Shown here: positions 1,255 through 61,000 of the stretch, piece by piece | How the letters are laid out: every line of letters begins with the position of its first letter | Numbering within the stretch: position 1 is the stretch's first letter | From: a virus | Virus record (IMG/VR): IMGVR_UViG_3300035158_000293 | Coordinates: 1-64,000 of that record | DNA: 64,000 nucleotides | Reading direction: 5' to 3' (one strand) | Program-made: the position numbers and the translations under genes | The notes under the pieces: generated by a model | Databases searched by the model: none | The model's input: the letters and a program-made list of their open reading frames with translations, nothing else | Told to the model about the DNA's origin: nothing

Positions 1255-4200
1255 TTAGCTCCTCTTGGAAGCGTTCAAAGCTTTTTGAATCGCCTCATGA
1301 ACCTCTGGAAACTTTTTCTTGAAAGCCTTCGGTGCCGCCGCGTACAAAGCCAACTGCCGCTTGTCTATATTTGCTTCCTGCAACCCAGTATAGCACGCCA
1401 GCGCGAGGTCGGCAACACACTCCGCGAGAGTAATTATGGCTATCGGCAATTCAACACCCGCACGCGCCTCTTTGTAGCTGTATGTATTGGCGTTGTAAAG
1501 GCGTATGTCGCCCTCAACAATTTCCCCCGGAACCACCGTGTTGGGAACGTCCAAGAACTCCACCACTACGTCTGACAAACCCAACCGCTCGGAGAAGGCA
1601 GGGATTTGCTCCTTGATCTTGCAGACAAAGGGGGTGTCCTCTGTTTTTGACGTTGTGTCAAAATCCACCCGCACCGCGTCATCGGTTTTTCCCGTCAACT
1701 CCATGTATTCTGCCGCAACCGGCAACAAAACCTCACCTAGCGCAACCTCGTGCGCCTGTAACGCTTCTACCAAGCTTTTGTGACTCCCCGGAACTCCAAC
1801 CACAATCCTGTAATTCACACCGTCGCGGCGCAATACTGCGGATGTGTGTGCTTTACCGCCCTCGAACACCAACGTGTTCACTCGTGTAAACACCGGTGAA
1901 CCCTTCAAATCCATGTCAGTAGTCTGCCCCGCAACCAACGGTACAGAAGCTTCGGGTTTGTCTGTGATGTGCTCCAAAAGTGCTTGGACACGCTGGCACG
2001 CCAACGGCTCCAACGTGGTTAAGGCAGTCATGTGTTCTTCGATACTCTCCGTCAAGTACTCCTGTGCGTGCTCGGGCAAGACTACGGACGCAAGCGCCTC
2101 CAAATCCTCCTCGGACACATCCACAAGCCCAAAGAGATCAGAGTACACACGCTGTCGAATTTGTTCTTCGGTTTCCCCTTCTGTCAGGTTTTTGGCAATG
2201 TCTGCATCCAGACGCGGTGTTGCCTGTCCTGTGTTGGAAAACTTCCGACGCATTTTGAGCACTTGGTCTGCCGCGTAGTCGCTAAACCGAGCAGGGCCAT
2301 TGAAGCTGTTCCACTCCTCCTGCAAAAGCTCACGTTCATGTGCAAGTAACGCCTTTACACCAAGCGCTTTGGCCGCATCCTCACAAAAAGCATCGAAACC
2401 CTCGGAAAGCCAACGCATGAACACCGGGGATTTCATCTTGGTAGCCTCGGTCAGCGCGGCACGGTGCCTAACATTGTTCTGCAAAAACGCCGTTAGGCAC
2501 CTCTCCCGTACCTGCCGCGTCGCTTCTCGTTCCTGTTTCCTCACGGTAAATCGCGACCTTGCCTGTACACCACGTACAAAACGTGTCCACGCTGTGTGTA
2601 GTGGGGCTTCGTCTTCTGTAAGCACCTCGCACCGATTGGGGTGTACAGTCTTCACGTCAGCTACAAATTGCTGGAACCCTTGTTTGCTATCTTCGGGCGC
2701 GTTCGTATCGAGATGCTGCGCCCACCTGTTGCGGAAGGTGAAAGGGTGCTTTTCTGCGTAATCCAGCAAGCCTTCCACTACGGCATTCAATGGTATTGAG
2801 CACCCCTTCGTCGTGTGCAACCAATCAAGGTAACGCCCATATGCCCGCTCAAACTCGACGACGCTCTCTGCAAACGCGGTGCGCAAAGCACTTCGCAGGT
2901 TGCTTGGCAGGTCTTCATGTCGCTTGAATCCTTTCAAATAAGGCTTCAACTCGGGGACGTAGACCTCTATATGGGCATCGCGGCTCAAAGCGCGAGGGTG
3001 GAACAATACACTTTCACCAAAACAAGCATCATCGGAATAGAACACCAGTTTCAAACTACCAACCGACCCTCGAGCACTTTCCAATCTGCACATATTGAGT
3101 GGGTTTTTGAGCATGATGCCCCGGCGACGATACTTGCGATCTTTGTATAACTCAAAATCATCCACCGTGAGTTCTGACAAACGCCTCGACATGCTCTCAT
3201 GGACGGCTTCCGCTTCCCCACAATTGTCCCGCGCGATTATGTGACGTGTTATCTCGGTTGAAGGTAAGGCGTTTGATGTTGAAAGTGCTTCGTCGAGTAT
3301 TCGCTCTTCTTCGACTACGGACTTGTCCAGAGGGGATGTAACAAACAAGTCAACCAAAGAGCCCTCAGTCTCTTGAAGTCTCTTATGCGCCTGCGCCTTT
3401 GCTTTGGCCAACCATGCTTGTCCTTTTTTGTTCTTAATCGGCGCGTCCATAATTCGACGAGCGATGCGACTAACGGCGGGTGACAGAACGCTCTTCCATT
3501 GATGGGGCGTCAAGTCCTTTTCGTTGTCGATCACAAAGAAGTTTTTCTTCCCGAAAAGCTGTTTGTATTTATCTAAATTGCGATGGGCTCCGCGCCATGC
3601 GTCGTCAATATACGACGGAGGAACATCGCGGCCCCCGGCTTCCGCACGTTTTTTGTTGCGTTCGAGGGCCTTTTCCAGACTCGTAGTAACAAACACCATA
3701 TAGACGTCGTAACCGTTGGCCCGCAACCGCTGAACAGGCTTGAAAATTCGGTCGAAAGCCCACCCTGTGCTGTCAACAATAACCCCTCGACGCTGCTGGG
3801 CGTAGTACCGCAATTCCTTTTTCTTTAGATCACGGGCACGAGTAAACAAGTTGTAATGCCAACCAGCTTCCCCAAAAGGAATACCAGATTCTCGAAGGAA
3901 CTTTTCGAGGTGGCGATCTTGACTGATGACTTTGAACCCCGTACCAGCGAACATTTCCTCGCCTACAGCACTTTTACCAGAACCGCCAGCACCGGCCAAG
4001 AAAATAGCTTTGAGTTGTTGGGGGTCTCTGTAACCCTCTGTCAACCCTAAAGCCTCGGTGAGTGGACGCCCTAAAACCTTATCGAGGCTTTCATCCACAT
4101 CACTCGGGTCCACCAAAACCAAGCCGTCCATAAGGTCATCAGGCGTGTAAGGGTAGTCGCAGGTGTACAATGCTTCCACAATTGTACGTTTGCGGTGCCC

Positions 4201-6097: not shown

Positions 6098-6143
6098 CAC
6101 AAAAACAAGGTTTGCCGTTGGACAAACGCGCTTTGACGTTGTG

Positions 6144-9100
6144 TCAAAACTGCTCGGCGATGTCTTGCGGAACCGAGAGAATGAGCTTACCGCCGGAGTA
6201 CCGCACAGGTGTATCATCCGGCAACCTCAAAAACTCGGCCCTCTGCATCACCTCTTGCGCCTTTGATCGGTCAAATTCAATCTCGACCAAACCGTCGGCG
6301 TCATCGTCGTCCTCGGACTCTGAAAGACCCACACCAATGAGCGCGGCGTCTTCCTCGGTCAGAGTTACTACCATATCACCAGATTCCGTGAACGTGACGT
6401 CTGCCTCTGAAGATACGCCGCGTTCATCGGCGTAGTTCGTAAACTTGGCAATGTCGGCTTTCGGAATCGTTATCCTGATTTCGTCTACTTCTTCTTCCAC
6501 GGACTCAGCAAACATGTCTTCAGCGTCGTCAGCCATTTCTTCTGCCGCAGCCTCGATTTCACGTTTGGGAGCCCCTTTGAATTCTTGTGTTAAAAGGTCA
6601 ACGTAAGCGCGTTCAAGCCTTCTACCACCACCGAACCGCTTATAGAGACGAACAGCTTCCAGATAGATAGGTTCGATATTCACTACCTGAAGCTGAATCT
6701 CGTCCGCGTCCATATCTTTTGGGTTGCCGAAGACTTCGTTGATGATCTCATCACCGTTTGTATGCTGGCTCCGCGCTTCGTCGGTTTGACGTTGTCTGAT
6801 CGCTTTCTGCACCTCTTTCGGGAGCCGCTTCACGCTGACCTTTTTCCCAAGGTGCTTACCAAGGTGAACGTGCTTGCCCACATCGCCTACAAACTGGTTG
6901 AAGCCTTGAGGACTGAATGGCCGATTACTCATACCATACGCCTCGGTCCCGATGATAACAGTATAACGGTCAAACGCATCCTCACCAGCGTCGTACACAA
7001 CGACCTTCTGCGCTTCATCCACGGACTCGCCGGTCATGTATTGACGCAAGCGCTTCCGAATACGTTGCTGTATCTTTTGCGGCAACCTATTCATGGGGAC
7101 TTTCTTCCACTTTGGATTTATTTGCAAATCCCAACTAGCGGGTCCGATTTCGCCTGCGTACATATCGACGCCGTACCCGATGTCGAAGACCGTTTTGCCA
7201 ATAACAACAATGTACTGGTCCTCATACCGACCGGAATCGTACACGGTTATCTTTGGCTTCTTAGCTTCATCCACCGTTTCCGCCATCCCCTCGTACTTCT
7301 TCATGATCCGCTTGGACGCCTGTGTAGCCCATTTCTTGTTCTTGTCGATCCTGCCCTTGATCAACTCTGAGGAAACCCACGCGAAATCTTTTGGGCGCAT
7401 CTTCACCTTGTAGGCAAACGTGAGCAACTTGTTCAAGCCTTTGAACACTTCCTGATCTTGACCCTTGAGGTCATAATTGTCACGCAACTCATAGAACATC
7501 GCCCGTGTGTTCGGTGTGGTTCCGAAGTCACCGTCGGGTTTGTAGTGCTTCATTATGGGATTGCTGGTCACACTATCCATGTGTGCCGTGAACTGTTTCT
7601 TTTCGGCCTCGTACACCGCTTCCTCCTTTGACCGCATCATGTTGATGACGATCTGAATGGCGTCCTCGGTATCTTTCGCGCCCTTGTTGATCGCGTTGGT
7701 AATCATGGAGTCGATGATGTCCTCGTCAGGCTCGTCGAAGATGTCCTCGGCGGCATCCATAGCGGCCTGTTTGACCGCTTCTCGGTCGATGTCCGCTTCG
7801 TAGAGCGATTCATTCATCTCTTGCACGAACTCTTTCACCGCTTCCTTGTAGAGGTCAACTATAAGCTGTGGAGCTTTCTTGACGTTCTTGACGTGAATTT
7901 CCTCGTCCGCCCATTCCTCCTCTTCCTCGTCCATGACGGTAACTCGGAGCTTCTTGTCGTCGTAGATAGCCCGAAGCTCGATGGTGAATTCCTCGTTGTT
8001 CGCTTTGGGTTCCTTACGGGTGAAGACCCAAGTGTAAGAGTCGTAGTCGGAGTCGGTTTTGTACTGAAAACCTGCACGCCGAGTTTCATCGACGAAGGTG
8101 TTTTCAATCATGTACTTGAACTGCTTGTGAGGCCGACGCGCTTCCTGATCCGCGTAATACTCGTACCAAGAGCCCCATGTCGTGAGGTAAATCTTGCCTG
8201 TTTCCCCATCGTACAGAAGCGTGGGCTTGTACGTGTCGCCCATGTTGATGTAGTAGGCCGGGTACTCCGCGGTGAAGTCATCTCCGCGGTCTTCGTCTGG
8301 TTGAAGGTACTCCACACCAAAGCCGTCTACGAGATCGTTGATTTGTTTCAGAGCATCCTCTCCACGACCACTTTTAAGGATGTTCTTGACCTCCTTCGCA
8401 GTATCCGTGTCCACTTTGAAAGCTTTGGCAAGGTCGCGGATAGCCGGGCGAGCATCACCGATGGAAAGCTTGCGAGCTTCGTCGAGAGCTTCACCGATCA
8501 TCATAGCACCACACTCGGGACATTCGGTTTCATTGCAGGGTGTGCCTCTTTCGTGACGCATCTCATGCCCACAAGCAGGGCAGACGCACATTTCAGCGCC
8601 ACCATCACCCTGATAAGGACCACCTTGACCCATTCCATCCCCTCGACCCTCGTCAACCTCTACCAGTTGACGCAGGCCCCATATTTTGCCTTCGTCGTCG
8701 AAGCGATTTTCGTTGATCTCTTCAAGCATTTCTCGGGTCTTGCCATACACCGGCTCCACACCCTCGGCTATCAGGATGTAGTTATAACCCTTGACAACCA
8801 TACGGTTGGCGACGCGAACTTCGGACTCCGTGAGCCTCATTGGTTGTGCCTCCGTTTCCTTTGTTTCCGACCGGCCCATAGTACCCAAACTGAGGTATAG
8901 CCCGGTTTCTTTTTCAATCCAAGGTTTTAGCTGGTCAGCATAAAGACCTTCTGCCTCGGCCTTGGTGGTACGACTACCTTTTCGGGTCGCACGAACCAAC
9001 TCGACATCATACAGGTCTTTGCCTCTGTCGTAATGTATGACAAGGTAATTCGCGCTGGTCTTATTGCGCCCAATGCGAATGTTGACTGTCTTGTTCTTTT

Positions 9101-12248: not shown

Positions 12249-14581
12249 AGCTCTGTGTAACGGTCTTCAACATACTCGCGAGCCTCTTCACAGTCCGCGA
12301 AGAACTCCATATCCCCGGTCCTCTCCTCCTCGGGAAACGTCAAATTCTCGTGGTAGTACCCAATGTCGTGCCACGGCACCAACCTGCGGAAAACTTTGAC
12401 AACGTAAATAGTCCTGCCCCCGTAGGGAAGCTCCACCGTGAGGATGGTAAACTGCGCATCTGTGTTGCGCTTCACATCCACAATGGTACACGGTGGTGGA
12501 CCCTCACGCAAGAACAAGCTCACAGCATCCGATAAACGCGACGGGCCGTCCCCTTGCTTCACACGTTCTGCAAACGCGAGAATAATCTGTTTCAAAGCCA
12601 AACCGCTCGGTAAGCCGTAGTGATCCGAAACCTCATACAACTCTGTCTTGACCTCCTCAAGAGCCGCCTCCACAGCCTCCCATCGGCTTTCGTCCTGCGT
12701 CTTTTTCTTGGTCACTTTCGTTTTCTCCTGCCCCTCGGCTTTTGTATTTTCTGTTGTTGAAGTTTTTGTAGAAGCGACCTCTCCCGATAACTCGTAATAA
12801 GCCAACACAGCGGCCAACTCCTCTGCGGCCCACGTAGTATCAGGGGGGAAAGGTTTAGCATAGCCTTCCAAACCGTGTCTGATCCTATGACACAGGTGAC
12901 AAATTGCCTGTTTGACTTTTTTGCCTCTGATCCAACACAATGAATGGTGGCGTGTCTGTCCACAACAAGAACACACCTTCGTGGCAACATCTCCGTCTTT
13001 TATCTTCTGTGTGGCTATTATAACTTTTTTCTCCCAAGTGCTACGATATTGACAACTTGTGCATCGTACACCATGCGAACCCAACCTGCCGGATTTGTAC
13101 TTTAATGGGTATTCCTTAGCGCACTCTGTACACCAGAAGTAACCCTTTTTAGGCTTGCTCACCTTAGCCTCCTGTTTGATTTTTTGCGGCTCCTCAACCT
13201 TCTTGACACGGCGCTTGGCCCTGTGTTTTATGCGTTTTTTGTTTTTACTGGTTGCTCCGTTGAGAGGGTTTTGGTAACACCACTCATCCACATCCTTGCG
13301 AACAAGAGTATTTCGAGCAGTACCCCACTTCCGTAGTGCGGCCTCGCCTTCAGGCAAACCTAACGCTTTCGGTGTGTCCTTCGGGATAGCTTCGCGAGCC
13401 TTCCACATGCACACCCTGCAAACGATGTGAAAGCCATCAACAGAGCCACCTGTAAAATGTGAAAGAGGCCGTTCCACGCCACACTCCACACAGACCCTGA
13501 CCCCGCGATATTTCGGCGTATCCTCGTACTTCGCTTCATCCCGCGCCAGCGTTTCCGAAAGGACACAAACTTGACAAACGGGCGTGGACGACCGCAACTG
13601 TGACTTCCGGTAGTAAGCAGGTTTGTAAATGTACCCACAACGTGAACACTTGACATAACTGTATGTTACGTCTGTCTCCCTTTTAGCGGCCAAGAATAAC
13701 TGAGCCTTGCGCACGTTGGCACGAAAGACCCCGTCTGGACGTAAAGGTCGCACGGTCTTGCCTGTGGCTTTTACAAGGAGGCCATCATACGCCCGTTGGC
13801 ATAGCTTGCACCAATCTGTGTTTGCCGTGGTATAAAAAAGAGTCTGCGGTAGCGCGTCACCGCACAAAGGACAAACGCTCGTTGTGTCGTCCGCTTCATC
13901 GTAACCCTTTTTCAACGTCCCCCGTACAAAAACACAATCGGTGCAAACTTCCCCTTTGCCCCCCGACTTGTATGTGTTCTCTACTACGTCGCCACACACC
14001 TCACATCGAAAACACCCCTCCGATGGAGTTTGACTTTGTGTCAAAGGCGCGTCCAACACTTCTTCAGGACATTGTGTTTCCGTTTCTCCCAATCTCAAGC
14101 TTTCAGCCTGTTTGTAAGCCTTGTTCGCTCGTTCGACATCTCCAAGGGCTGTATAAAGATCGCCCACAAGGGCATAAAACTCTACATCGCGATCCTCACA
14201 AGACTCCTGCAAAGCGCTTTTCAAGCTCGTTTCTGCGCCGTCTGCTTCGTTCAAGTGGAGCAACACTCGCGCCTGTTGTAGATGCGCCCTCGCAAAGTTG
14301 GGTCGCTGTTCCACAACCCGTGCAAAGTTTTTTAGGGCCTCTTCCCAATCCCCCTTGGAAGCCCACACCAACCCTAAAAGGTAGAAAGTCCGGGGGTCTT
14401 TGGGTCTCGATCTCGCGGCTATCTCTGCATGATGGTATGCTCCCGGTCCATAGTTTAAGGCAACCAGAAGCTCCACAAGATCACACCGAGCCTCGAAATC
14501 GTTGGGGTCACGTTTTAAGCGTTGTTTCAAAAAATGTACCCGTAGGAACCTCTCCGTATCAGTCATTTCTCTCTTTGACAT
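12236..14581 (-). CDS. TPR-repeat protein with multiple CxxC zinc fingers
   Basis: Start moved to MSKREM. N-terminal TPRs (FYLLGLVWASKGDWEEALKNFARVVEQRPNF) are followed by about six pairs of CxxC motifs. Confidence 0.8.
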   Translation of the reverse strand: MSKREMTDTERFLRVHFLKQRLKRDPNDFEARCDLVELLVALNYGPGAYHHAEIAARSRPKDPRTFYLLGLVWASKGDWEEALKNFARVVEQRPNFARAHLQQARVLLHLNEADGAETSLKSALQESCEDRDVEFYALVGDLYTALGDVERANKAYKQAESLRLGETETQCPEEVLDAPLTQSQTPSEGCFRCEVCGDVVENTYKSGGKGEVCTDCVFVRGTLKKGYDEADDTTSVCPLCGDALPQTLFYTTANTDWCKLCQRAYDGLLVKATGKTVRPLRPDGVFRANVRKAQLFLAAKRETDVTYSYVKCSRCGYIYKPAYYRKSQLRSSTPVCQVCVLSETLARDEAKYEDTPKYRGVRVCVECGVERPLSHFTGGSVDGFHIVCRVCMWKAREAIPKDTPKALGLPEGEAALRKWGTARNTLVRKDVDEWCYQNPLNGATSKNKKRIKHRAKRRVKKVEEPQKIKQEAKVSKPKKGYFWCTECAKEYPLKYKSGRLGSHGVRCTSCQYRSTWEKKVIIATQKIKDGDVATKVCSCCGQTRHHSLCWIRGKKVKQAICHLCHRIRHGLEGYAKPFPPDTTWAAEELAAVLAYYELSGEVASTKTSTTENTKAEGQEKTKVTKKKTQDESRWEAVEAALEEVKTELYEVSDHYGLPSGLALKQIILAFAERVKQGDGPSRLSDAVSLFLREGPPPCTIVDVKRNTDAQFTILTVELPYGGRTIYVVKVFRRLVPWHDIGYYHENLTFPEEERTGDMEFFADCEEAREYVEDRYTELCKG

Positions 14582-16560: not shown

Positions 16561-16659
16561 AATCCGGTGGAAGGAGATTTGAAAAAGATATGGCGTGTAA
16601 CGCACAACGCAACGTGTATGGATACAAATACGAGTTTGACACAACGTCAAGGCAATTTC

Positions 16660-19070: not shown

Positions 19071-20621
19071 TTATGAAACGCTTTTGGCGAATTTAACGGC
19101 GGCATCACGACTTTTGAAGCCACTTATTGCTCGATGACTCCATCCATACCATTTACCGTCCTTACTGCTCTTGCCGACGGAGCAAACCGCGTTGTCCGGT
19201 TTTGCCAACTCCGGCTTGATCCCGTACTCCTGTGTGAGTTTTTCAGCGTCTTCAGGCGAGCCAATGTAGTGACCCTCCGGTGTGTACGCGCTGTCTATTT
19301 CAATAGCATCGTCACCACCTAATACGTAACGCTCTTTTCGCACCTCGTAACCGTCGTGCTTTTTAGTGCTTATGACCTTTTTGTCGTCGCCCCAGCCATC
19401 CTCCAAAAGCGCCACTTTTTTCAATGTCTGGTGCAACAGGTGCCATCCAGCTTCTTCAACAACATACCCGTGTTTTGACACAACGTCAAAGCTCGTGGCT
19501 ACCTCGAACGACTGTATACCATCCCCTTCATCAGAAAGGTCATCATGTATCGCTTCTTCGACCTCTTCTGTATCTTGGTCAGCTTCTCCATCCCCGGATA
19601 CTTCATCATCGGCACTACCCTTGCGACCAGAACCACTCTTGCTGGTTTTGTCCTTTTTCTCCCTTTGGTCAGGCTTTGGGCTATCAGCTTTTTTAACAGC
19701 TTGCTCTTTCTGTTTTTGTGCCGTTTTGTTTTTATCATCCGACCCCTCTTTATCAGTAGCCTTCTCGCTGTCAGATTGCCCTTTCTCGGCGTTTTCTTCC
19801 TCCCCGCCTTGCTCTATACCCTCAGCATCCTCTGGTTCATCCTCCGCCGCATCAGCATCATCATCCTCGTCATCTGAACGCAATCCCGGCTGTTCCAAAA
19901 CTTTGCCGACGGGATTGATCTTCAATTCGGGCAGATCGAAATGTTCCTTTGTAGCCTTGGCCGCGACAGGCGAGGGCATACCGGATGCAATCTTATCATC
20001 GTAATAATTCTGGACGTCTTCGAGATCGAAGGTGTATTCCGGCTCGTCCAAGGTCTCACTTTCCGGGTCGGATTCCGGGGCTTGTTCCTTCTTGGTTACT
20101 ACGGGGTTTTCCGGTTCTTCCTCTTCCGATTCTTCCTCTTCCGGCGGTATTTGGGGTCGAGGTTTTTTCTCGGCTTCACGCTCTTTCTCGGCTTCAATAA
20201 CTGAAGCTAACCACTCTGCAACGCTCTCTTTTACGGGGGGCACTTCCCACTCACCATTGATGAAAACCAAATAAGGTTCCACGGTGTCTTCAGGTAACGA
20301 CCGGGCATAAACTACACCCCCGGTCTCCACAAGAGAAGTTTCCCAATCCGATGCGGAAGCATCTTCATCAGGCCGTAGGTACGTGGGATCGAACGATGTA
20401 ACCCTCAAAATTAACGGGAGGCCGCCCGCGCGACTCGCGCATAGAGCGGCCTCCTTGAGCGTTGTATCGCACCACGTTGTGAGATGTACAACAGAAGGAT
20501 CACCCTCCACCACCTCATTCAGAAAAGGCTTTACACTCGTGGTGAAACGAGCGCGTAGACCCTTCCTGCAAATATCGGCAAAATGCCGTGTTGTCGTGGC
20601 GTGGTAAAGGACATCTGTCAT
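19071..20621 (-). CDS. 516-aa protein: Tpt1/KptA-like ADP-ribosyltransferase fold, charged linker, C-terminal KWYGWSHRA domain
   Basis: LYHATT...ICRKGL...VVHLT...GGLPLILRV at the N-terminus; CSVGKSSKDGKWYGWSHRAISGF at the C-terminus. Confidence 0.7.
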   Translation of the reverse strand: MTDVLYHATTTRHFADICRKGLRARFTTSVKPFLNEVVEGDPSVVHLTTWCDTTLKEAALCASRAGGLPLILRVTSFDPTYLRPDEDASASDWETSLVETGGVVYARSLPEDTVEPYLVFINGEWEVPPVKESVAEWLASVIEAEKEREAEKKPRPQIPPEEEESEEEEPENPVVTKKEQAPESDPESETLDEPEYTFDLEDVQNYYDDKIASGMPSPVAAKATKEHFDLPELKINPVGKVLEQPGLRSDDEDDDADAAEDEPEDAEGIEQGGEEENAEKGQSDSEKATDKEGSDDKNKTAQKQKEQAVKKADSPKPDQREKKDKTSKSGSGRKGSADDEVSGDGEADQDTEEVEEAIHDDLSDEGDGIQSFEVATSFDVVSKHGYVVEEAGWHLLHQTLKKVALLEDGWGDDKKVISTKKHDGYEVRKERYVLGGDDAIEIDSAYTPEGHYIGSPEDAEKLTQEYGIKPELAKPDNAVCSVGKSSKDGKWYGWSHRAISGFKSRDAAVKFAKSVS

Positions 20622-36881: not shown

Positions 36882-37129
36882 TGTGTCACTCCTTTAGCTC
36901 GCTGATCCACGACAACAGCGGGAACGTAAACCACACAACATGCGTCGCCATTACCAAAGCGGTGGTACTCGTAACGCGGTGGACTATCGAGAATTTTGAG
37001 TTTTGTTGCAGGTCCATCCGGGTGGCGCATCACCGAAACCTCTGATCCAGCAACAGGGATTACGTCAACAGGCAGAGCAACACTACCCTCCTCGCACGCC
37101 AATATAACAGTAACACCCTGACGTACCAT
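36857..37129 (-). CDS. Hypothetical protein (paralog of 35966..36286)
   Basis: GGAGG SD; shared motif. Confidence 0.6.
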   Translation of the reverse strand: MVRQGVTVILACEEGSVALPVDVIPVAGSEVSVMRHPDGPATKLKILDSPPRYEYHRFGNGDACCVVYVPAVVVDQRAKGVTQCQETEAP

Positions 37130-38458: not shown

Positions 38459-38991
38459 TCCACTACCTTGTCCCGCTTGACTTCAATGGTTGGTGGGAGC
38501 GTGTACCAAGTGCCGTCATCGCGCCGGTGTAATTTGGCCGGTTGACATTGTGTCAAGTTAGAGCACGCATCAACACACGGAAGCCAGTCGGAGGGATTGC
38601 CGGTTTTGAATGAGCAACCACACGCCTCACCGTCGTTCCAATAAAGCCCGTCGTAGCCGTTGTCCTGAAGCCACCGCCTGACAAGGTCCGGCAGGATGTC
38701 GTCCATATCGCGGATGTGCCTGCATTCCTTGACATCCACACAATCCCGACCAAGCACTATGCCAAGCCCGCCGGGGCCGGAGTTCAAGCCCCGTATGGAT
38801 GCCATATCGGTCACAAGCACAGCCTCGCATTGCGGACACTCACAAACATGCGTCTTGTACTGAGCGTCACCGTGTTTGCACTCGTCGTAGTCCTTCCTCT
38901 GCATCACGTATCGCAAGTGTTTCCAAACAACCTCACCGTGATACCGACAAGCGGGACAAGATACAAGCTCCAACGTCACTTTTTCACTCAT
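38425..38991 (-). CDS. Cys-rich protein; C-terminal domain paralogous to 42983..43270
   Basis: LVRRWLQDNGYDGL...CGC matches IVKKYLRENGFDGL...CAC. Confidence 0.65.
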   Translation of the reverse strand: MSEKVTLELVSCPACRYHGEVVWKHLRYVMQRKDYDECKHGDAQYKTHVCECPQCEAVLVTDMASIRGLNSGPGGLGIVLGRDCVDVKECRHIRDMDDILPDLVRRWLQDNGYDGLYWNDGEACGCSFKTGNPSDWLPCVDACSNLTQCQPAKLHRRDDGTWYTLPPTIEVKRDKVVDWADEKDLPPI

Positions 38992-45438: not shown

Positions 45439-45483
45439 TTGCCCTCTCGCGTTCACTTGACACAACGTCAAAAACTGGTGTAG

Positions 45484-48798: not shown

Positions 48799-49615
48799 AG
48801 GGAACCTCCTCCCATTTACGCCCGTCGAGTTCGGGCAGCTTGTGCATTTTCCTGTCGACCATGATCTGCTTGAAAAAGAATGGGGTGCTGGACTCGACGC
48901 ATTGATCGCGCACACTACGCACCCAATCGGGGTGCATGGGTCGCGCGTTCGGCCCTGACTCGCCGCCGACGATTACCCAGTCGATGCCGTCAATGTCAAC
49001 CGGGAATTCGGTGCCGCTCCAACATGCGAGACAATCACCACATCCCCCGCAACCTGTTTCGTGGATAGAGAGCCAGCGGCGCATATCCACCGGCCCCAAC
49101 ATCGGCTCAATACTGAGAAACCGCACCGCCGCCGGTGTCTGAATCAGGTAGCGAGCCCTCTTGTCGAAGGTACCCTGATTTTCAGCGGTTGCACCCAACC
49201 AAACATTGGGGAGTGGGGATTTGCCCAACCTCCTGAAAAACCGCAACATCCGATCAGCACGTTTCGTGAGTATCTGGTAGATGTGCTGTGGTGTTTTTGA
49301 CGCAACGTCAAGAATCCGCGTTATCCACGCATCGGGAACCCGAGGGTGAAAGAGATCGCCCATCGACGAAACAAATACCCGACGGGGTTTCGTCCATCGG
49401 AGTGGTTTCTCAAGCTGGGATTCCACAAAAGTCGTTTTTCCGTTCCAACGACCGTCCGTTATAACCTCAGAATACTGGGGTGTATTGGGGTTCACGGACA
49501 AACGCTTACCGTCCCGCTCCGCGTAACAATTCTCGCACCCCTCAGAAACCTTACTACACCCTATAACCACATTCCAAGTGGCGTCCGTCCACTCAATGCG
49601 CGATTTGTCTGCCAT
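48791..49615 (-). CDS. Phage Gp37/Gp68 (DUF5131) family protein
   Basis: SRIEWTDATWN..IGCSKVSEGCENCYAE, VFVSSMGDLFH, QILTKR, DWVIVGGESG, PFFFKQ. Confidence 0.92.
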   Translation of the reverse strand: MADKSRIEWTDATWNVVIGCSKVSEGCENCYAERDGKRLSVNPNTPQYSEVITDGRWNGKTTFVESQLEKPLRWTKPRRVFVSSMGDLFHPRVPDAWITRILDVASKTPQHIYQILTKRADRMLRFFRRLGKSPLPNVWLGATAENQGTFDKRARYLIQTPAAVRFLSIEPMLGPVDMRRWLSIHETGCGGCGDCLACWSGTEFPVDIDGIDWVIVGGESGPNARPMHPDWVRSVRDQCVESSTPFFFKQIMVDRKMHKLPELDGRKWEEVPCG

Positions 49616-51703: not shown

Positions 51704-51713
51704 TTGCGTGATG

Positions 51714-52087: not shown

Positions 52088-55000
52088 CTATTCCGCGTCC
52101 GCCTCTTTTATGAGCGTCGTGAGGCCCTCTGGCGCGTTAAACGGGTTCGAGCCTTCGGCAGCTTGGAACCAGACTCTCGTAGTGGCCCCTTCCACGAATT
52201 CCCGCAGGGCTGCGTCACTCTCGAACCTCGCAATTATTATATCACCGATTTTTGCCTCATACAAGTTTTTTCTCGGAAAAGATTGCAAAACAAGCAAATC
52301 GTCGGGTCCGGGGCTCTCGATACCATAAGGCCCGAAGGCACACTCTGAAAGGGATTTCAGGGCGTTGACGAACTCCATACCCTTGACCGGGAAGTCCCAC
52401 GGATCGCGTCGGCCTGCAAGCCACCGCCCGAAATACCGGAAGAACGCATTGGGGTCGTCGAAGCCGCGCAGTTTGGCGACCCGCACAATCTCTCCCGCGT
52501 GTACGCTGTACAGCACGTCCAACGTCAGCTTCACTACCTTGTCAAGGGTGGCCTTGTCTGGATTGTAAAGCGGGTGAGGCTCTTCCTCGGGTTCATAGAA
52601 CGAAGCCAGCGTATCCGCCTCCATTTGGAGCTTGCGCTCGAGCTTTTTCAGAATGCTCTCCGCCGCCGTCTTCTGTTTTGGTGTACCTGCGGGAAAGCTT
52701 CTTTTGCTCCCCTCCTGTAGTATTCCGCGGCGCTCCTCTGCAAGCACCCCGTGATGTACCTGTTCAGGGTGCAAACGTGCCACGGCGTCGCTCTCCTGCA
52801 CCTTTTTCAGGTCCACGAAACCACCACGGTCCACAAGTAGTACCTTGTTGCCGGTAACGATGACATCGCCGATTGACATGGACGTGTGATCGATGCCCTT
52901 CTGTTTGAGCAGTTTTCGCGCTTCCCCGTGCGGGCTCCACAACCGCGCCTGCATCGCTCGGAACAGCTTCTCGGGGTCGCGTTCCTTCACCTTGCCAAGC
53001 AGGATATGGGTTTTCCGCAGGTTTTTGGGGTCGGGTAGTGCGTCGTGATCCTTCGCCCAATCGAAACCCATGCCAAGGTCGCGACTCACGCCGGTTTTCA
53101 TGTACCATATTTCGGTGTCACCCTCTGCCAAACCCGGAACGTACCGTGCCGCAACATTGAGGTTGCGATACTCGGTCACTTCGTTGACGGGACTACCCTC
53201 GGCAAGAGGCACCATAACGACACCGCCAATACCGAACACCGCCGGGTGGATGTCCTCCGTGAAATGTTTCGGGAGGCCCTTGACGGGTTTTATCTGCTTG
53301 CGTTTGGGGTACAAGTACTCCGCGTAGTCAAGAAGGGTCTTGCTCAAATCCTTCTCAACGAAGAACGAAGCGCCTTTCACAATCCGACGCCCTCCTCGAC
53401 CCCTCTTAACGCGCCAACCCGCTCGAACCAAACCGCGTATCAGGTCGCGCCCTTTGAGAGGCACGCGCTTGTTCGTTCCAATACCTACGGGTACGTTAAT
53501 CCGCGTGTGCAGGTGCTTCCGTACCCGTCCCGCACGCAGAGGAGGGAACTGTTCGGCAAACCCGTCGGTGTCTTCGTAGTCGGCTTGCTTCTTTTGCTGT
53601 TCTTCCTCTTTTTCCTTCGACGTCTGCGCTTTCGCTTTTGCCGCTTCTGCCTGCGCCCTGTTGAACGCTATCTCGCCCACAAGCTGATCGACGGGCAACA
53701 ACTCCATAAATTTTGCTGGTCGGTCTGATTGTGAGATGGCTACCATGCCCTTGTCTTCGTCGTAAGCCTCCACACGTCGTATAACGGTGGGTTCCTTTGC
53801 GTCTCGGCCTGCCGCGGTTTCCCACTCGGTGCCTACATAACCGGGTTTAACGAGCTTCTTCGCCGCCGCTATGTCCCGGCCTTCTGCAAGGTCATTTGAC
53901 ATTGTGTCACTCGACTCCGCTTTCAAACCGCGTATCATGCTGTCGAGATAGCGGTTGAGTTTTGTGATGCGTAGTCCACCCTCGCGTTTCGCCAAAGCGT
54001 CAAGGTCATCTTCGGTCCAACGCGCTTTTGTTTTCACACGCGCCACAAACGTGTCCAACTGCTCCGGGGCTTTGAATTTGTAGACCGGATTCATGTCACG
54101 ATTGTTCTGTGTGAGGTTTTTGAAGAGCGCACGGGGAACATTCGCACCCCGTGTGTCCTTTGTACCGGCATAACGGGGTTTTGCCGCTTTGCCGGGGGCT
54201 GTTTTCGGCAAATCGTAGTCGACATAAAGGGCAAACTCGTCAACCACCCCGCGCCCCGGCTGCTTCGACCACTCGATTTCGATGGGTTTCCGCGCTTCGA
54301 CAATATCACATCTATTACCTTCGGTAATAGTATGTGTATTTGTCGGCACCTCAGAATCGTCCGGTTTTGACGTTGTGTCAATCGAAACACCCCGCTCGAT
54401 ACGGTCGATAATGCGGAGAATCTCCTGCACGGTGTAGTCACAATCCTCCGCCTCGCCCACCGTAACCTGCTGGTTCACGTTGCGGGCGAGTGCGTTCAGC
54501 TTGTCGAGGGTCCAGTCACGCCCCTGTGCTACGTTGAACGCAAACGCGGACGCTGTAACCTGATCCGGGAACTTGTACGTGAACTCTCGGCTGTTCTCCA
54601 ACGTAATGCGCACAACGGCTTTATCGTTTTTAATCCGCAGGATGCGTGTGCCGTCCACCCGCGCCGTCCGGTAAACATAACGGTCGGGTGCGGAGTCCTC
54701 CACCGTGAGACTCACCTCTATGGTGTTTGCATCCGGTGCAACCGCTTCTGTTTTGGCGGCTATGCGGGAGCGCGGTAGTGTGACCAACGCTTCACCCTTC
54801 TCGAGCTTCGTCATGTCGGTCTGTTTCACCGCAGGCTCGTTGCGGCCCTTGCCGATGGGATACTTGTATGCGTCCCCGCCCTGCCACGGGTAAACCGAGA
54901 GGTCCGACACGGCGGCCTGCTTCCTCACTACCTCTTCCATAAATTCAGGCAGCACGCGCTCCACCGCCTGCGTCACAGCCACCGCGTCAACGTCGGGGGA

Positions 55001-58000
55001 ATCAATCTGCACGGAGTAAACCGACGCCGTCTGCCCATCGCCCACGGCAGCGGACGCACGAATAACGGAGCCAACGACCTGCTCGCCTCGACGTATCGTC
55101 ACACCGCTTTCGTCTCTGCGAAGTGTAACGCGCTTACCGTCTCCGTAGTGAACATCCCGAGTGATTATCGGCGCACGCCACTTGGATTCCCCAAACGTGC
55201 CGCGCGAAGTCTTCAAGGCTACTTCCGGGATGTCATACTTGTGAAGCGTGCTGTTGCCTCTCGGCATCTGCCCCACATGCGCCGCGGCGCTGGTCATCGC
55301 TTGTGCAAACGTGGGGAAGGTGCTCCACAAACGATATGCGTTCACATCGTTGCCCTCATTGACATACACACGGAACGGCCCGTCGGTGGAACCGCTCTCG
55401 GTAGTGAACATGACCGACCACCCGTTTACGAGGTCGGACCCGACGTACTGCTCCTGCGGCTCCAAAAATTCGACGATGCTCTCTTGGAACGGGTTCTTAT
55501 TCCGCGGGTAGTAAATGTCCGTATCCGGGTCGTAATAGCAACCCTCGCGGGGGTCGTAATAAACCACCTTGCCCGTGGGCGTCTGGAAAGGCCCCTCGAG
55601 TCCTTGGCGCTTCTTGTACCGTGTGCGGTCAATTGTGCCAAGGCGTTTCCAGCCCTCGCCCAAGAGCCCAACGCCGTCTGTCCTATCCCCACCGTGAATC
55701 AGGTTGTACCGCGCAAGACTGTCGAGATAAACGCGCCCGTTCAAAAGCATGAACGTCGGCTGTCCCGCGTCTCCCCGGTCAACGTACACCAAGTCATCGA
55801 GACGCTCGACGGGGTGCTTGACGCGCTCCCCGATGTCCCGCAGAGCCTGCTCGGTAGTCACCTTGCCTTTTTGAACCTGCGCCGCGATAACAGCGGCCAG
55901 CTCGGGTGAGATATTTGGGAAGGCGTTGTGTACGTCCACGGCATTCGTGGCGCTTTTAAGCATGTTGTCACCCGCCTCCGTAGTCTCCTGCGCCAAACCC
56001 GCGTTCTGGCCTTGGTCGAGTGCCGCAAACCCGCGGTCTGTTGCCGGTAACGTCACCGACGTGTCTGCGGTTTTGCCTTCTTCTGTTTCCTCTGGCGGCA
56101 CAAACGGTATTTGTGCGCCGAACAGCGGATGCAGGTCAGCCGGATCGGGAGCAAACGGGGCGCTTCCGGCACCCGCCTCAATGGTAGTCATGGGCGTGGA
56201 AGCCGCGTCCTGTAAGGGGTTCAGCAGGGCGTGGCGGTAGTCGGCTCTGTGCGCCAAAATACGCCCACGTTCAACAATTCCACCCCTGAAGAACGCTAAA
56301 CTCCCTTCCACCCGCGTGAATTTTGGAAAATGTGTACCCGCCACACTCTCACACACCTCCCGTTTACGCAACACGGGCATACCGCTCACAGTCTTACCCA
56401 CAACCTCATACGCACCTGCGGCTATCCCGTACCTTCCCCGACCCATTACGCTTTCTTTCAAGCCTTCCGTACCTTTTCCCTTTCTCCTTCCTTCCTCCTC
56501 CATTGACATTGTGTCAACATCGAAACCCTGCACGCCATTTTCCGTCTCGCTGACCTCTTCCGGTAGTGTCTGTCCGCCCTCTTCTCCCTCGACCTTCACT
56601 CCCGCCTTTTTAGCAACCGTCATGGTCCACGGCGTCCAGCTCACGTACATCTCCTTCGTCGTCGAACTTATGGACACCGAACCGTAATCTCCCGACACGT
56701 TGCAGGACAACCTTCTGCTTCCACTCACGGGTTCCCAATCTGGATGTGGCGTACCTTTCACCTTCGGGTCGTAGTGCATTGCGTTTTGCTCTTTCATCCA
56801 CCGGTCAATCCTCTTTACCTCCCTGCCTCTCACGTCCAGCCTCTTCAACTCCGCGTCTGCCCAGTCACTCGGGTCGCTGTTGGGATTCGCGAGTTCCTTC
56901 TCCACCCGCTTGATAGCATCCCGTATGTACGGCTGGAGTAACTTGGGTGCTTTACCCACGTTCTTCTTCGCTTCCGCTACGAGCTTCCTGTACTGCTCCC
57001 TTTGTTCCTCCTGCGTACCGGCTCCCTCTTCCAGCCTCAGAACCTTTCGTGCGAGTTTGCCCGTCTCTCCCTTTGCTTCATGCAGATTACCCATCCCGCT
57101 TTCCTCACTCTCTTTCGCGAGTGTCGGGTCCGCCGTAATGTGATCCTCGTTGTCATTCGTGAGCAACCCGAAGCCGAGTAGTCTTTCCCTTGCACCTTCC
57201 TCTTCCGGCTCTGCGGGTTCGGGGTTCGCTTGTTTCTGCACCTTCTGGCTCTCGGGGGTTTCGGTTCCCGCATCCCTCGTGTATTCCTCAAGAAACGCTT
57301 CAATCATGGCGTCGCACTCTTCCGGCAGGTCTTCGTACATCCCGTGTATTTCCTTGACCAGACTGTGTACCTCCTCGAACGTGTTCGGCACGTCGTAAGC
57401 TTTCCCTTTGAGCACTACGAGCGTACCCGCTTCCGTCTTCTTCACTCCCCACGTTCCGAAGCGGCTTGTGATCATACCCGCCTCAATCGTACCCTGATAC
57501 GTCTCTGCGATTTCCTCAAAGTACGGCTGTTGCTTCCTCCTATCCACGCAATCGAGGCACATCGTCCGTGCTTCCTCGTCCACCACGACGGGTTCATCTT
57601 CCGCAAGCACCGTGTTGCACGACGCACACCTCTCTATGTCGAGTGGAACGTAGTCCCATGTGATTTGCGCTTTTTGCCTTTGCTCTTCCAGCTTCAACTC
57701 ACCCACCGCACGGTCGAACGCTTGCCGGAACAAGTCTGTGAAATACTCCTCGTCCTCTATTTGCGGCATGTGCATCCACGCCGCTCTCGCAAGCTGTTTT
57801 GTGAGCGCCACACCCTCGTTGTTCCTTGCCGCGTAGTTCGTTGCTTCCCTTTGGAGCTTGGGGGACAGCTTCTCGGTTGTGTCCTTCCGATACAGCTTTG
57901 CTATTTCATCCCCGAAGCGTTTCTGTTTGCTCTCGGAAACTACTGTACTTTCGTTCGGTTCATTTATTGACATTGTGTCAAACTCCCTTCGGTGGGTTTG

Positions 58001-61000
58001 ATTGTGCTCGTTTTTACCCTCTGAGAACGCACATGCGCGTCCATGCGCGTTTTTCTTTCGTGGGTTGGTGCCTCGTGTCATGTCGATGTCGAAAATGCTT
58101 TCTCGCGCATCCTCGTTCGTTTTTCGTTTTTGGGTGGTTTGCGCCTCGATCTCCGTACCGAAAACGTGCTGTGTAAAGGCGGATTCACCTAAAACCTCGG
58201 CCTTTACACGCTCCACATTACGGAAGTTTGTCTTCTTGAGAACGTCTACCCCGCCATGTCCGAGGGCTTTTTCACACCCCGCGGCAATTGCTCGGGCATT
58301 GCCGTACACGGGAAGAACGTAGTCGTCGCGATCTTTACCGAAGATAACCGCCGCCCCGACAATCTTGTTTGCACCTCGGAATGTAATGGGCTCTGTCACT
58401 CTGACATTCGGGTACTGGCTCTGCAAGGCGGTTGTCGTTGGACGATTCAAAACAGGACCGAGCTTGTCCACAAGGGCCTCAAGCTCCTTCCTGATTTTCG
58501 GGTTGTGTTGGTCGGTACGTCCCGGCCCTTCGTAGTTACGAACCCACGCTTTGAGGAAGTCCTTTATCTCTTTCTCCGCGGTCCTCCTGATCTTGACAGG
58601 GTCCACGTTTTGTGACGCGGCCATGCGCTCTATGTACTTCGCCACAAAACCCTCAAACGTATCCCGCCTTTGTGCCAACGCTTTGTCACGTTCACCTTCG
58701 ATATACTCACGCTCCCAATCTGCAAGGTCCGGGTCTTGGTAGTTGTACCGGGCCTCGAACTCTTCGTCGGGTTCGGGGTCAAATTCCTTAACCGTGTACT
58801 TCGTAATCGCCATGCCTGCCGGTGCAGCCATTACTGCAACCGATCCGGGGTCGGGAAGCTGGTCTTCGTCGGTTTTTGCTGTGCGCGTTTCTATTTGCAC
58901 GGCGAAAAGCATAGGGTCTCCGCCGAATTTGTTTGTGGCGTCCCTCGCGGAACTCAATGCTGTGAGGAAGTTTTGTGTGAAGTAGTTACCATCAAGACTT
59001 GCGAGGGCTTGATTCTTCTGATCCCAAACTTTCTGCTTCTGATTGAGTTTGAAGCCTTGTTTTAGAATCGACCTCCCAAACTTGGTAGTGGTACCGTGGA
59101 AGTACAACGCCTTGGCTTCGGTTAGATTTGACGTTGTGTCAAAACCCTCCCAAAAGTCGTCATCGAACTCGATTTCGATCTCCATACCCGGAAGCTCAAT
59201 TTCAATCTCGTTGTCATCCTCGTCTTCGTCGCCGTCTTCTCCGTCGGGATTTGTACCCTCTGGACTCGTGTATTTCCCGGTCAACAGATAGCCGTCGGAC
59301 GATGGCATTGTCGATGAATCTCCCTTTACAATGGCGTCCTTTCCGGGATGCGTAGTTGTGATACTGTGCTCCGGGTGTTCGCCTGCGCAAGTCTCCTCCT
59401 CTTCGGCTGCTTCATCGGACTCCGTTACCGGTATCTTCGTTCGGGCCAACGCATCTGCAAACGTGGCAAACCTTGCCACCTCAACCTCGCCTTGCATCAC
59501 CACAAAAGGCTCGTCCCCGTACTCCTTTACGTCGATGCTGTACTCTGTCTGTTCCTTTTCTTTCTTAGTCTGGAACAGCCCTTTGTCGCGTTCTGAATCC
59601 TTGTCCGCAAAACGCTCGCGTTTTTGGTATGATCCTGTCCTTATGCTCCGCAATTTTGTACGAAGGTTCTGTAGCTTCTCCGCGAAGTCATCCAAAACAG
59701 AGTAAGTGTAATAGACAGTTTGTCCGGTTTTCCTGCCCGTCTCAACATTACGGCGTATGCTAGCCAAAGCCTCGCGAGCATACGCGCTGGTTTCAAAGGC
59801 CGTCACCACGTCATCTTCTTGGTCGTCGGAAACGAAGAACACCTTTACGGGACCATCCACGCCTGCGGGCATGATCGCTTTGTCATACTCGACACCAGCA
59901 ATCACGACCCCTGCGTCGAACACTTCGTAGTTGTCGAGGTCTTCGCCATATATGAACTCGTGTTTGCCGTAAACAGGGTAATACGGCAACGCTTCTTCTG
60001 TATCGTCGGCTTCTGTCACACTCTCGTTCATGCGGGCCTTGATCCAGCTCTTGAAGCGGCTGTTCTTATCCTTTGCGGACACGATCTCTATTGTGTAGTC
60101 GGACTCGAGCTTTTTGATCTCTTTGAGGAGGTCCGCCTTTTCATCCCAAGTATCTCCATCTAAAGCGTGTTTCATTCTCAAAATGTCGGGCCACTCTTCC
60201 GACGGTTTGTCTCGCCACTCCATGTAATTGGTTACGTCCTCAAGCTGACTGATCCCTATGAGCAATTCGGACCCTTTGGGAATCTTCAAATCCCGATCTT
60301 TTATAATCCACTCGCCCTCGTTCTTGTAAACCTGTCCAATGAGCTTCAATCCCTCTGTTATTTTGCGCTCAAGCTCTTTCATAGGGACTTCGTCCAAAGC
60401 ATCGGCGAAGCGCTTGTAAGTGTAGTCCTCCTCACGAAGCTTTGGAATGCCGACCTTCTTCAACCACTTTGCAATATCTCGCGGTCCTCGGATTTTCTTG
60501 GGCGGGTTTTTTCGGGCTACGTCCGCCAACTTGCTGTGGCCAGCTATGTGTCGATTTTCCATCACAAGTGTTTTGTATTTCGAATCACTCTTGAACGCCT
60601 CTATCATGTATTCGAACACGTTGCGGTAAACCTGTGTTAAACCTATCGGGGTCTTGCTCGCGTCAAACAAACGGTAGAGCGCGTCACAATTCTTGGCGGT
60701 GAGATACATGGGGTTATCGTACATAACGCGGCTAACGGCGTTCTCTTCAACAAACGCACGCCCCGGCATCTTCAACGCGGCTGACTTGTTGAACAAGTAT
60801 TGGATGTCCTCGGAGCTACTGACACCCGCAGCGCCTTCGAGCCGTCTCTTTTTCAATGACTCAAGGTGAGACGGCTTGTACACGTCGAACGACAGGTAGA
60901 AAAATTCCGGTATGTCCGCGTCGGTGTAAGACGCCTCGACCAATGGCCGACCTGCAAACGTGGCCGTGTGCTCGTTTGTATCACCGTTAGGTAAACCCTT

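Follow-up and report, generated by a model that had tools for sequence, protein, structure and literature searches.

The DNA considered here is a window of 64,000 nucleotides, the first 64 kb of a single virus contig of 123,798 bp (IMG/VR record IMGVR_UViG_3300035158_000293, hereafter G000), and the element in question is a short palindrome that recurs all along it. By crude open reading frame (ORF) calling, 102 of the 121 ORFs of the contig, including all large genes, lie on the minus strand, and 93% of the DNA is taken up by ORFs. Pfam matches identify a T4-type portal, a terminase with an intein-like insert, a ribonucleotide reductase, RecA, SbcCD-like proteins, a flap endonuclease and two N6/N4 methyltransferases (N6_N4_Mtase). 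A ParB-family protein of 440 aa is encoded outside the window, at contig positions 111135-112457. Within the window the 13-mer TGACRTTGTGTCA occurs 13 times exactly, whereas 100 dinucleotide-preserving shuffles gave a mean of 0.01 copies and none of them reached 13. With at most one mismatch the count rises to 16, against 0.19 in shuffles, the added copies being those at 14031, 35328 and 49298. All of these lie where an initial annotation, made from the letters of the window alone, had placed them, the 13 exact copies with their strands and the three with a single spacer change (the last on the minus strand), and the strong enrichment it had claimed is borne out as well. Its divergent copy at 12004 did not survive: the word found there, TGACGCGAAGTCA, has only the TGAC/GTCA arms in common with the motif, and about 3.5 TGAC-N5-GTCA words remain in the coding DNA of the contig after synonymous shuffles, which places it at the level of chance.

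The whole of G000 holds 25 exact copies, 14 on the plus and 11 on the minus strand. Their alignment defines a conserved unit of 15 bp, TTGACR-TTG-TGTCAA, in which a T precedes the 13-mer in 24 of the 25 copies and an A follows it in 21; the flanks further out are unconserved. The longer arms proposed initially hold for this one base on either side and no further, and the conserved asymmetric centre, proposed as 5 bp, is seen here as an invariant TTG (25/25). Spelled out, the 15-bp site is TTGACATTGTGTCAA, and a G variant also occurs. In other words, the unit consists of two TTGACA half-sites that flank an invariant asymmetric TTG, and the half-site is the -35 hexamer TTGACA.

A second contig, G001 (95,753 bp), begins with the last 141 bp of G000 (123658-123798 of G000 corresponding to 1-141 of G001, locus L115) at 100% identity, and its end (95255-95753) is 87% identical to positions 1-499 of the window. 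The gene order of a relative, G008, runs unbroken over the junction between the end of G000 and the start of G001. Because of the terminal overlap and this synteny, we treat the two contigs as neighbouring pieces, either of a single genome of about 219 kb or of two very closely related strains. With G001 come 14 more exact copies, bringing the total to 39 in 219,410 bp, a density of approximately one copy per 5 kb, and no switch of orientation was seen along the genome. When viral contigs were scanned for the 15-mer, most matches were single chance hits, and only G001 stood out among the matches listed. With its 15 bp and 39 exact copies, the element has the attributes of a parS-, OB- or NBS-type site, that is, a short palindrome of 13-16 bp that is near-invariant and specific to its replicon.

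Several lines of evidence indicate that the palindrome is maintained as DNA. When the codons of each ORF of G000 were shuffled synonymously 200 times, 8.2 copies were left of the 25 observed (eight that lie outside the shuffled codons plus 0.2 regenerated); in G001 the same procedure left 6.4 of 14. Since the shuffle regenerates almost none of the intragenic copies (about 0.2 of 17 in G000), the constraint acts on the DNA and not on the protein, in agreement with what had been deduced earlier from the diversity of genes and frames. Among the 21 intragenic copies of the 39, 18 read D-[TVI]-[TMV]-S and three read x-T-Q/L-C-Q. The remaining frame of the motif reads TGA, and eight of the 39 copies are placed so that the upstream gene ends with this stop codon (examples are window position 6134 and contig positions 73394, 79780 and 119297), which looks like a way of putting the site at a gene end without coding cost. 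Altogether, 18 of the 39 exact copies are intergenic or on a gene boundary, by the same crude ORF calls, compared with roughly 7% of non-coding DNA. The earlier description of the copies as mostly inside genes thus applies to the window (11 of 16 copies with at most one mismatch) and is weaker genome-wide. The three intergenic sites (16637, 45458 and 35328), the stop codon within 6134 and the start codon within 36876 are all as first described (Table 1).

Table 1. Copies of the palindrome in the 64,000-nucleotide window, with the strand of the motif and the gene context
Copy	Position	Strand	Context
exact	1648..1660	+	TTGACGTTGTGTCAA with flanks; in 1101-aa ORF 1255-4560, reads F-D-T-T-S-K
exact	6134..6146	+	motif TGA (minus strand) is the stop codon of ORF 6144-9623; next gene 111 bp downstream
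one mismatch, TGACTTTGTGTCA	14031..14043	+	within ORF 12236-14707
exact	16637..16649	-	intergenic, between ORF ending at 16468 and ORF starting at 16730
exact	19476..19488	-	within ORF 19071-20621, reads F-D-V-V-S-K
exact	31944..31956	-	within 3524-aa ORF 24624-35198
one mismatch, TGACGCTGTGTCA	35328..35340	+	intergenic gap upstream of the start (35198) of the 3524-aa ORF
exact	36876..36888	+	holds the ATG (CAT 36879-36881) of ORF 36288-36881; in the 3' end of ORF 36857-37129
exact	38543..38555	+	within ORF 38425-39024, second reading frame, L-T-Q-C-Q
exact	45458..45470	-	intergenic, 14 bp past the stop of ORF 45484-45954
one mismatch, TGACGTTGCGTCA	49298..49310	-	within ORF 48791-49615
exact	53897..53909	+	first of five in 3604-aa ORF 52088-62902
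exact	54368..54380	+	within 3604-aa ORF 52088-62902
exact	56504..56516	+	within 3604-aa ORF 52088-62902
exact	57968..57980	+	within 3604-aa ORF 52088-62902
exact	59129..59141	+	within 3604-aa ORF 52088-62902

The copies are also spaced more evenly than expected at random. In 5000 simulations of random placement, the coefficient of variation (CV) of the gaps was 0.60 for G000 (P=0.005) and 0.69 for G000 and G001 together (P=0.012). The relatives introduced below behave similarly (G012, CV 0.40, P=0.0002; G013, CV 0.62, P=0.003), except that in G008, which has tandem pairs, spacing is not significantly even. As a separate observation, the 3604-aa ORF of the window alone holds five copies, all in the same orientation.

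Neither megablast with 10 kb of sequence nor tblastn with a 409-aa ORF found a cultured relative, and tblastn with the ParB-family protein gave only distant N-terminal matches, of 27-42% identity and covering no more than 56% of the query. Nor did an initial protein-pattern scan that used only ParB reveal any relative. Relatives, all of them uncultured, were obtained by portal and ParB searches of viral contigs and a ParB search of metagenome contigs. Their portals are 46-55% and their ParBs 33-39% identical to those of G000, and they have the gene order RecA-ParB-FEN-SbcCD-terminase-portal in common. De novo word and palindrome counts revealed that each of the longer relative records has its own palindrome of the 15-bp type, at a comparable density and with changed letters, the versions across the relatives being TTGACAYTGTGTYAA, GTGACAGCGTGTCAC, TTTACGCWGCGTAAA and TAGACA-N3-TGTCTA. 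With at most one mismatch, TTGACAYTGTGTYAA occurs 37 times in the 95 kb of G013 and TTRACAYTGTGTYAA 19 times in the 143 kb of G011. Exact copies number 17 for ccaGTGACAGCGTGTCACtgg in the 156 kb of G012, 14 for ATTTACGCWGCGTAAAT in the 74 kb of G008, four for the core TGACACSGTGTCA in the 24 kb of G009, three for TAGACA-N3-TGTCTA in the 20 kb of L171 and five for (G/T)TGAC-N5-GTCA(C/G/A) in the 21 kb of L175. In G012 the centre is GCG in all 17 copies. Only one site position is shared in orthologous genes, between G011 and G013 in an SbcD-like gene. Since positions turn over at a kept density, it is the density that is maintained and not particular copies. The conservation among relatives to which the initial annotation had pointed as a check thus exists for the lattice, with changed letters, and not for particular positions.

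We hold with high confidence that the palindrome serves a phage protein as its binding site, at the level of DNA and with conservation across the family. A phage-encoded dimeric reader, as suggested at the outset, remains the best reading of the codon shuffles, the even spacing, the weakness of the RNA hairpins (see below) and the family-wide conservation with changed letters. Three features had gone unseen before: the 15-bp unit, the identity of its half-site with the -35 hexamer, and the placement of some copies as what appear to be promoter operators.

The last of these is clearest in G001, where the copies at 28392, 28813, 31799 and 41592 lie in near-identical early cassettes of about 100 nt (listed at 28405, 28826, 31812 and 41605; loci L116-L117). 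Each cassette begins with an A/T-rich UP element, followed by TTGACA, by the remainder of the palindrome, which makes up the first nine bases of a 16-17-bp spacer, and by TGnTATACT or TATAAT; its 3' part has a conserved hairpin in the 5' untranslated region (GGCTCC..GGAGCC) and a strong Shine-Dalgarno site. The genes behind the cassettes encode small cysteine-rich proteins with CxxC pairs. No homologue of these proteins was found in the relatives that keep the motif, and the early region has no Rfam RNA family. A fifth promoter of the same build, at G001 5404, contains a reversed copy with one mismatch. The copy at G000 112521 forms part of TTGACA-17-TAAGCT, 64 bp before the start codon of ParB, and within the window the copy at 19476 has TATGTT 17 bp past its TTGACG, a possible internal promoter. 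Strong promoters of the same type also exist without the palindrome (G000 95355 and 17386; G001 34066 and 15053). As the palindrome is absent from these, it appears to be an add-on that marks a regulated subset of promoters, as an operator would.

At the same time, promoters account for a minority of the copies. Among copies with at most one mismatch, a -10-like hexamer follows at 16-18 bp in one of 29 in G000 and six of 16 in G001, against a background of 5%; the TAAGCT of the parB promoter scores below the -10 threshold used in this count. A reading of the palindrome as a promoter element only was rejected, because most copies have no following -10 element. As a side observation, the genome has 17 tRNA genes, of which 12 form one cluster adjoining a motif-bearing promoter (G001 3810-7496, L115; contig 78140-78212 and 121329-122027); none is in the window.

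Which phage protein might read the site? The proteins common to all four long relatives have replication, recombination, structural or unassigned roles, and ParB is the sole one among them with a recognised sequence-specific helix-turn-helix. The 440-aa protein matches both ParB_N (PF02195, E=6.5e-10) and HTH_ParB (PF17762, E=7e-6) in Pfam, and a profile search with it retrieved Caulobacter ParB (6t1f, E=2.6e-25), Spo0J, Noc (7nfu) and KorB (8qa8, 1.6e-8). Its AlphaFold model has a mean pLDDT of 72, with residues 45-250 mostly above 85. The model superposes on ParB-parS (6t1f, TMt 0.72), KorB-KorA-DNA (8qa9, 0.73) and Noc (7nfu, 0.63), and it aligns with the DNA-bound chains of ParB, KorB and Noc over about 200 residues. 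The N-terminus of the protein is lysine-rich and its tail acidic. Among the aligned phage ParBs, GERRxRx is present in eight of nine and AENS..R in nine of nine; we take the GERRxRA arginine patch and the ENxxR box to be the conserved nucleotide-binding motifs of ParB. No match to PF13614, the ParA-type family searched for, was found in any of five records (G000, G001, G011, G012 and G013, two of them at least 98% complete). With no PF13614 match, ParB appears to be an orphan, like Noc and KorB. A ParABS partition system was considered and set aside, as there is no match to PF13614 (the one ParA-type family covered) and the sites are dispersed and evenly spaced.

Supporting the link between this protein and the site is the position of the copies relative to its gene. 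In six of the eight records with a definable motif (G000/G001, G008, G009, G011, G013 and L171), a stretch of about 250 bp upstream of parB contains the record's own version. The upstream copy constitutes the -35 element plus spacer of the parB promoter in G000, G009 and G011. G013 has two copies, approximately 125 and 240 bp upstream, one of which supplies a promoter with its -35 element and spacer; in G008 a copy with two mismatches overlaps the -10 element; and in L171 a copy 43 bp upstream of the ORF stands just before a TGnTATAGT element. At a chance of about 25% per 250-bp intergenic window, estimated in view of the enrichment of copies between genes, the binomial probability of at least six out of eight is about 0.004, for relatives that are not independent of each other. 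Among 13 metagenome ParB loci, five (L167, L169, L170, L171 and L181) have a cognate-type 15-mer just upstream, and L168 is ambiguous. Residue 1 of the recognition helix is His in phages with xxxACA arms and Asn, Tyr and Asn in G008, L136 and L143, and this correlation between helix residue and arm lends weak support to ParB as the reader. Judging from these sequence comparisons, we consider it on balance probable that ParB is the protein that reads the 15-bp site and that the sites are parS/OB-like, serving as operators for a few promoters and, over the genome as a whole, as a lattice for loading.

A number of observations weigh against this assignment. The copies in promoters are few (1-2 of 29 in G000, 6 of 16 in G001, 3 of 37 in G013, 8 of 19 in G011 and 0 of 16 in G012); being a minority, they imply that repression cannot be the main role. 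Two of the eight records are exceptions, the nearest copy lying just past the 3' end of parB in G012 and about 1.5 kb upstream in L175. No cognate copy was found just upstream of parB in seven of the 13 metagenome loci (L173, L174, L175, L176, L177, L179 and L180), nor anywhere in the first 200-260 bp upstream in L136/L176, L138, L143, L173/L174, L177, L179 and L180, and L136, L138 and L143 (about 20 kb each) have no clear lattice. L175 has GTGACA-type sites without the His, while L177 and L179 have the His with a different upstream palindrome. The ParB of G000 itself reads GFRRHAA where its relatives read GERRxRA, so that its nucleotide chemistry may differ from theirs. An asymmetric 3-bp centre that is invariant within each genome is unexplained by a simple symmetric dimer. 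Finally, the link to ParB is correlative, with relatives that are not independent, and the common proteins of 195, 312, 366, 279 and 173 aa, whose function is unassigned, are also possible readers.

The last point leads to the alternative that we take most seriously, though we judge it unlikely: a different conserved phage protein, a repressor or a nucleoid-type protein, reads the double-stranded site, and parB merely belongs to its regulon. The five common proteins without an informative family match would be the candidates. The two motif-bearing records of eight that lack a copy before parB and the imperfect recognition-helix correlation fit such a protein, and in the available part of their paper the authors who described a similar repeat in Cluster O mycobacteriophages judge the ParB-like domain protein unlikely to be involved in genome stability (PMC4351075). 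However, ParB is the only common protein with a recognised sequence-specific helix-turn-helix, and the ParB family binds palindromes of about 13 to 16 bp, parS and NBS among them. The KorB OB core, for instance, has 13 bp (PMC11790492). The proteins of the early cassettes have no homologues in relatives that keep the motif and therefore cannot be the common reader.

Could the copies instead serve the host transcription machinery, as docking or decoy sites for region 4 of sigma70, for RNA polymerase or for a host regulator? The half-site is the -35 consensus and is the working -35 element of a well-formed promoter in at least six places, and the half-sites of the relatives are all -35-like (TTGACA, GTGACA, TTTACG and TAGACA). 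Against these stand the many copies without a -10 element and the presence of a second half-site and an invariant centre, neither of which is needed for sigma binding. Moreover, the letters are not the same from one related phage to the next, a pattern more in keeping with a co-evolving phage protein than with a conserved host factor. The only clue to the host, a weak one, is a 3.2-kb contig (L166) with a ParB homologue of 36% identity, binned in a metagenome-assembled genome of uncultured Pirellulales. The 13-mer was found in none of the 101 sampled genomes of this order, while a reversed control gave seven hits. No host regulon in the candidate order therefore explains the sites, given this weak host assignment; the possibility of a host regulator, which the initial annotation had left to be checked, found no backing there. 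All in all, we regard a host-directed role as quite improbable.

Very improbable, too, is a function as a single-stranded hairpin with a 6-bp stem and a 3-nt loop, be it in RNA, as a terminator or a processing or stability element, or in DNA that is extruded or being replicated, as a hairpin promoter of the N4 type for a virion RNA polymerase or as a signal for priming or an origin. With its TTG loop, TTGACR/TGTCAA shares the geometry of N4 early promoters, and in two variants a G.T wobble is retained on the TTG strand (R at position 6; TGTTAA in G013). The phage also has three unannotated ORFs of 3300-3600 aa, and a primase and a helicase are encoded next to the parB module. Yet the RNA folds at eight window copies have energies from -3.1 to -10.8 kcal/mol, mostly -3 to -6, with z below -2 in one of the eight, and the copies are not followed by a U-run. 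They occur in both orientations in a one-direction genome, and there is no orientation switch. In G008, G009 and G011, the sites are perfect 15-bp palindromes with a single central base, where a 3-nt loop would break pairs. No Pfam or PHROG match to an RNA polymerase was found in the two of these giant ORFs that were scanned, those of the window. N4-type hairpin promoters have a stem of 5-7 bp and a 3-nt loop on the template strand, occur in one orientation and are confined to the early region; here the 6+3 geometry fits, but both orientations, a genome-wide spread and weak folding do not, and this class was rejected. The preference for a double-stranded site over an mRNA hairpin, which had been argued earlier from the two orientations, is upheld by them and by the weak RNA hairpins. 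We give next to no credence to the copies being enzyme targets, whether nick sites (T5-like), cleavage or packaging sites, or sites modified by the phage N6/N4 methyltransferases: two N6_N4_Mtase proteins are encoded, the stop codon of one of their genes lies within copy 73394 and the regular spacing would suit nicks or a packaging series, but methyltransferase targets generally have 4-8 bp and not an invariant 15 bp, and copies built into the -35 element and spacer of promoters, parB's included, point to regulation.

Returning to ParB as the probable reader, the following course of events can be imagined. ParB would be an early product, its promoter being of the sigma70 type with one copy of the site as -35 hexamer and spacer. 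As its level rises, ParB would bind its own promoter and the four early cassettes and occlude host RNA polymerase, and this occlusion would limit the synthesis of ParB and turn off the early genes. Some 30 further copies, which are found within genes or at gene ends at intervals of about 5 kb, would act as loading sites. As in ParB/parS, Noc/NBS and KorB/OB, to which the analogy is drawn, ParB clamps in the nucleotide-bound state would slide from there along the adjacent DNA. The outcome would be that the whole phage chromosome, and only that chromosome, is coated. That ParB reads the site, that it slides and that the coating has an effect (silencing, compaction into a replication focus or self-marking) we infer from the genomes and from the systems compared below. 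More tentatively, as something possible rather than probable, we propose that a clade of large, apparently lytic uncultured phages uses an orphan ParB-type nucleotide-switch clamp and an even, phage-specific lattice, embedded in coding DNA to the point of lending its TGA as stop codons, to coat its chromosome, silence its early promoters together with parB, and mark its DNA as self, the last because the candidate host order yielded no copy of the site.

Among published cases, the 17-bp repeat TGTTCGG-NNN-CCGAACA of Cluster O mycobacteriophages (Corndog and its relatives) comes closest; it has 34 copies in Corndog, with invariant 7-bp arms. Its centre is TTT/AAA in 29 of the 34, there is no orientation rule and most copies lie off promoters; the function is left open in the part of the paper available (PMC4351075). 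Its authors predict a protein that binds DNA as a dimer, and there is also a protein with a ParB-like domain, which the same part of the text does not link to the repeat (PMC4351075). As far as that account goes, the two cases are alike in that the phages are apparently non-temperate, copies exceed 30, arms form a dyad around a near-constant asymmetric centre of 3 bp, and the sites are spread genome-wide, within genes as well as between them, in both orientations. The resemblance is one of kind, with all descriptive features matched, and no sequence homology is shown: the repeats differ in sequence and length and the phages are unrelated, with no similarity found. In the present phage, unlike in Cluster O, copies are built into promoters, including that of parB, and the letters co-vary across the family.

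Mechanistically, the nearest system would by analogy be KorB and its OB sites in plasmid RK2. RK2 has 12 OB sites in 60 kb, or about one per 5 kb. KorB is a ParB-family CTP clamp that loads at the 13-bp palindrome OB, TTTAGCGGCTAAA, slides up to 1.5 kb and represses promoters (PMC11790492). Common to both would be an orphan ParB-family protein that is a global repressor as well as a sliding clamp, with a scattered palindrome of odd length found both at promoters and far from any. On the other hand, by sequence the phage protein resembles chromosomal ParB and Noc (E 1e-25 to 1e-21) more than KorB (1.6e-8), RK2 is a plasmid whereas the phage has about 219 kb, and the phage sites, most of them intragenic, are spaced at even intervals. 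Noc of Bacillus, with its NBS sites (PDB 7nfu, 7ol9 and 6y93 were matched), comes nearest as an orphan ParB whose sites are scattered over an entire chromosome and not gathered at the origin: there is no ParA, the palindromes number in the dozens and they mark the chromosome as a body. However, the site sequence differs, promoter operators are not a feature of Noc, and where Noc tethers DNA to the membrane by an N-terminal amphipathic helix, the phage ParB has a lysine-rich N-terminus instead.

The stoperators of Cluster A mycobacteriophages (L5 gp71), with the consensus GGTGGMTGTCAAG, share TGTCAAG with the palindrome; 24-30 copies of a 13-bp site are spread genome-wide, and one overlaps the -35 element of an early promoter. 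The phages that have them are temperate and encode an immunity repressor. In the present genome, by contrast, the arms are palindromic, copies are divided into 14 plus and 11 minus although transcription runs one way, and the tyrosine-integrase family PF00589 had no match in any of the same five records (G000, G001, G011, G012 and G013). Stoperators are asymmetric and co-oriented with transcription, according to the available part of PMC4351075. Of the analogies drawn in the initial annotation, ParB/parS thus fits and is now tied to a parB gene with a site in its promoter, while stoperators fail on orientation and lifestyle. More generally, orphan ParBs are many in phages, with roles that the available part of a 2025 survey of the fold leaves unstated (PMC12704722), and ParB-dependent thymine dioxygenases use ParBs without a DNA-binding domain (PMC13229309). 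ParB-family CTP switches outside segregation act as regulators on plasmids, integrative and conjugative elements (ICEs) and a virulence plasmid (KorB, BisD and VirB). No paper describing a phage-wide lattice of ParB sites was found in the literature, supplementary files aside; the supplements of PMC12704722 may list such ParBs.

Other features of the genome deserve a brief description. The large terminase (contig 100610-103489, L002) has 959 aa and an intein-like insert (a weak Intein_splicing match at residues 189-404), and the palindrome copy at 102365 lies inside the insert. A family-A DNA polymerase (115880-119110, L003) has an N-terminal UDG-like domain. Four ORFs are of giant size, with 3524 aa (24624-35198), 3604 aa (52088-62902), 1609 aa (contig 63008-67837) and 3298 aa (G001 77615-87511); the first two have almost no Pfam or PHROG match and the 1609-aa ORF has no Pfam match. 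In G001 (50270-51302, L117), a 664-aa ORF contains a coding repeat with a period of 42 bp, whose core CGTCGATTCCA is present in seven copies, and the product is probably a structural or fibre protein that contains repeats. At contig positions 67969-72472 (L001, L004), a type I-C operon holds a Cas8c/Csd1 gene (E=7e-93) and a short CRISPR array (68.9-69.4 kb). The repeat core, CGCACATGTGCG, occurs as seven perfect and two degenerate cores, and the spacers are short and uneven. With its seven places, CGCACATGTGCG had been considered as a second over-represented palindrome and was dropped, being the CRISPR repeat core in the cas operon and unrelated to the lattice. None of the spacers resembles the 15-mer palindrome, and the CRISPR repeat was not found in species genomes.

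Two aspects of the lattice are new, namely the copies that serve as the -35 element and spacer of sigma70-type promoters, at four early cassettes and an orphan parB, and the lattices of the relatives, which have changed letters and place their own version before parB in six of eight records. Together they provide a testable pairing of one orphan phage ParB with one 15-bp site, 39 mapped copies, six candidate promoter operators and relatives with altered letters, and the natural series of site variants is a ready system for studying ParB specificity. The finding bears on dozens of identical intragenic palindromes in phages, published in 2015 for Cluster O and left open there, and on the question of how a large phage shuts its early genes off and keeps its own DNA distinct from that of the host. 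If the proposal is true, it would amount to a viral system of chromosome identity and silencing built from a segregation protein, and it would also explain the repeats of Cluster O.

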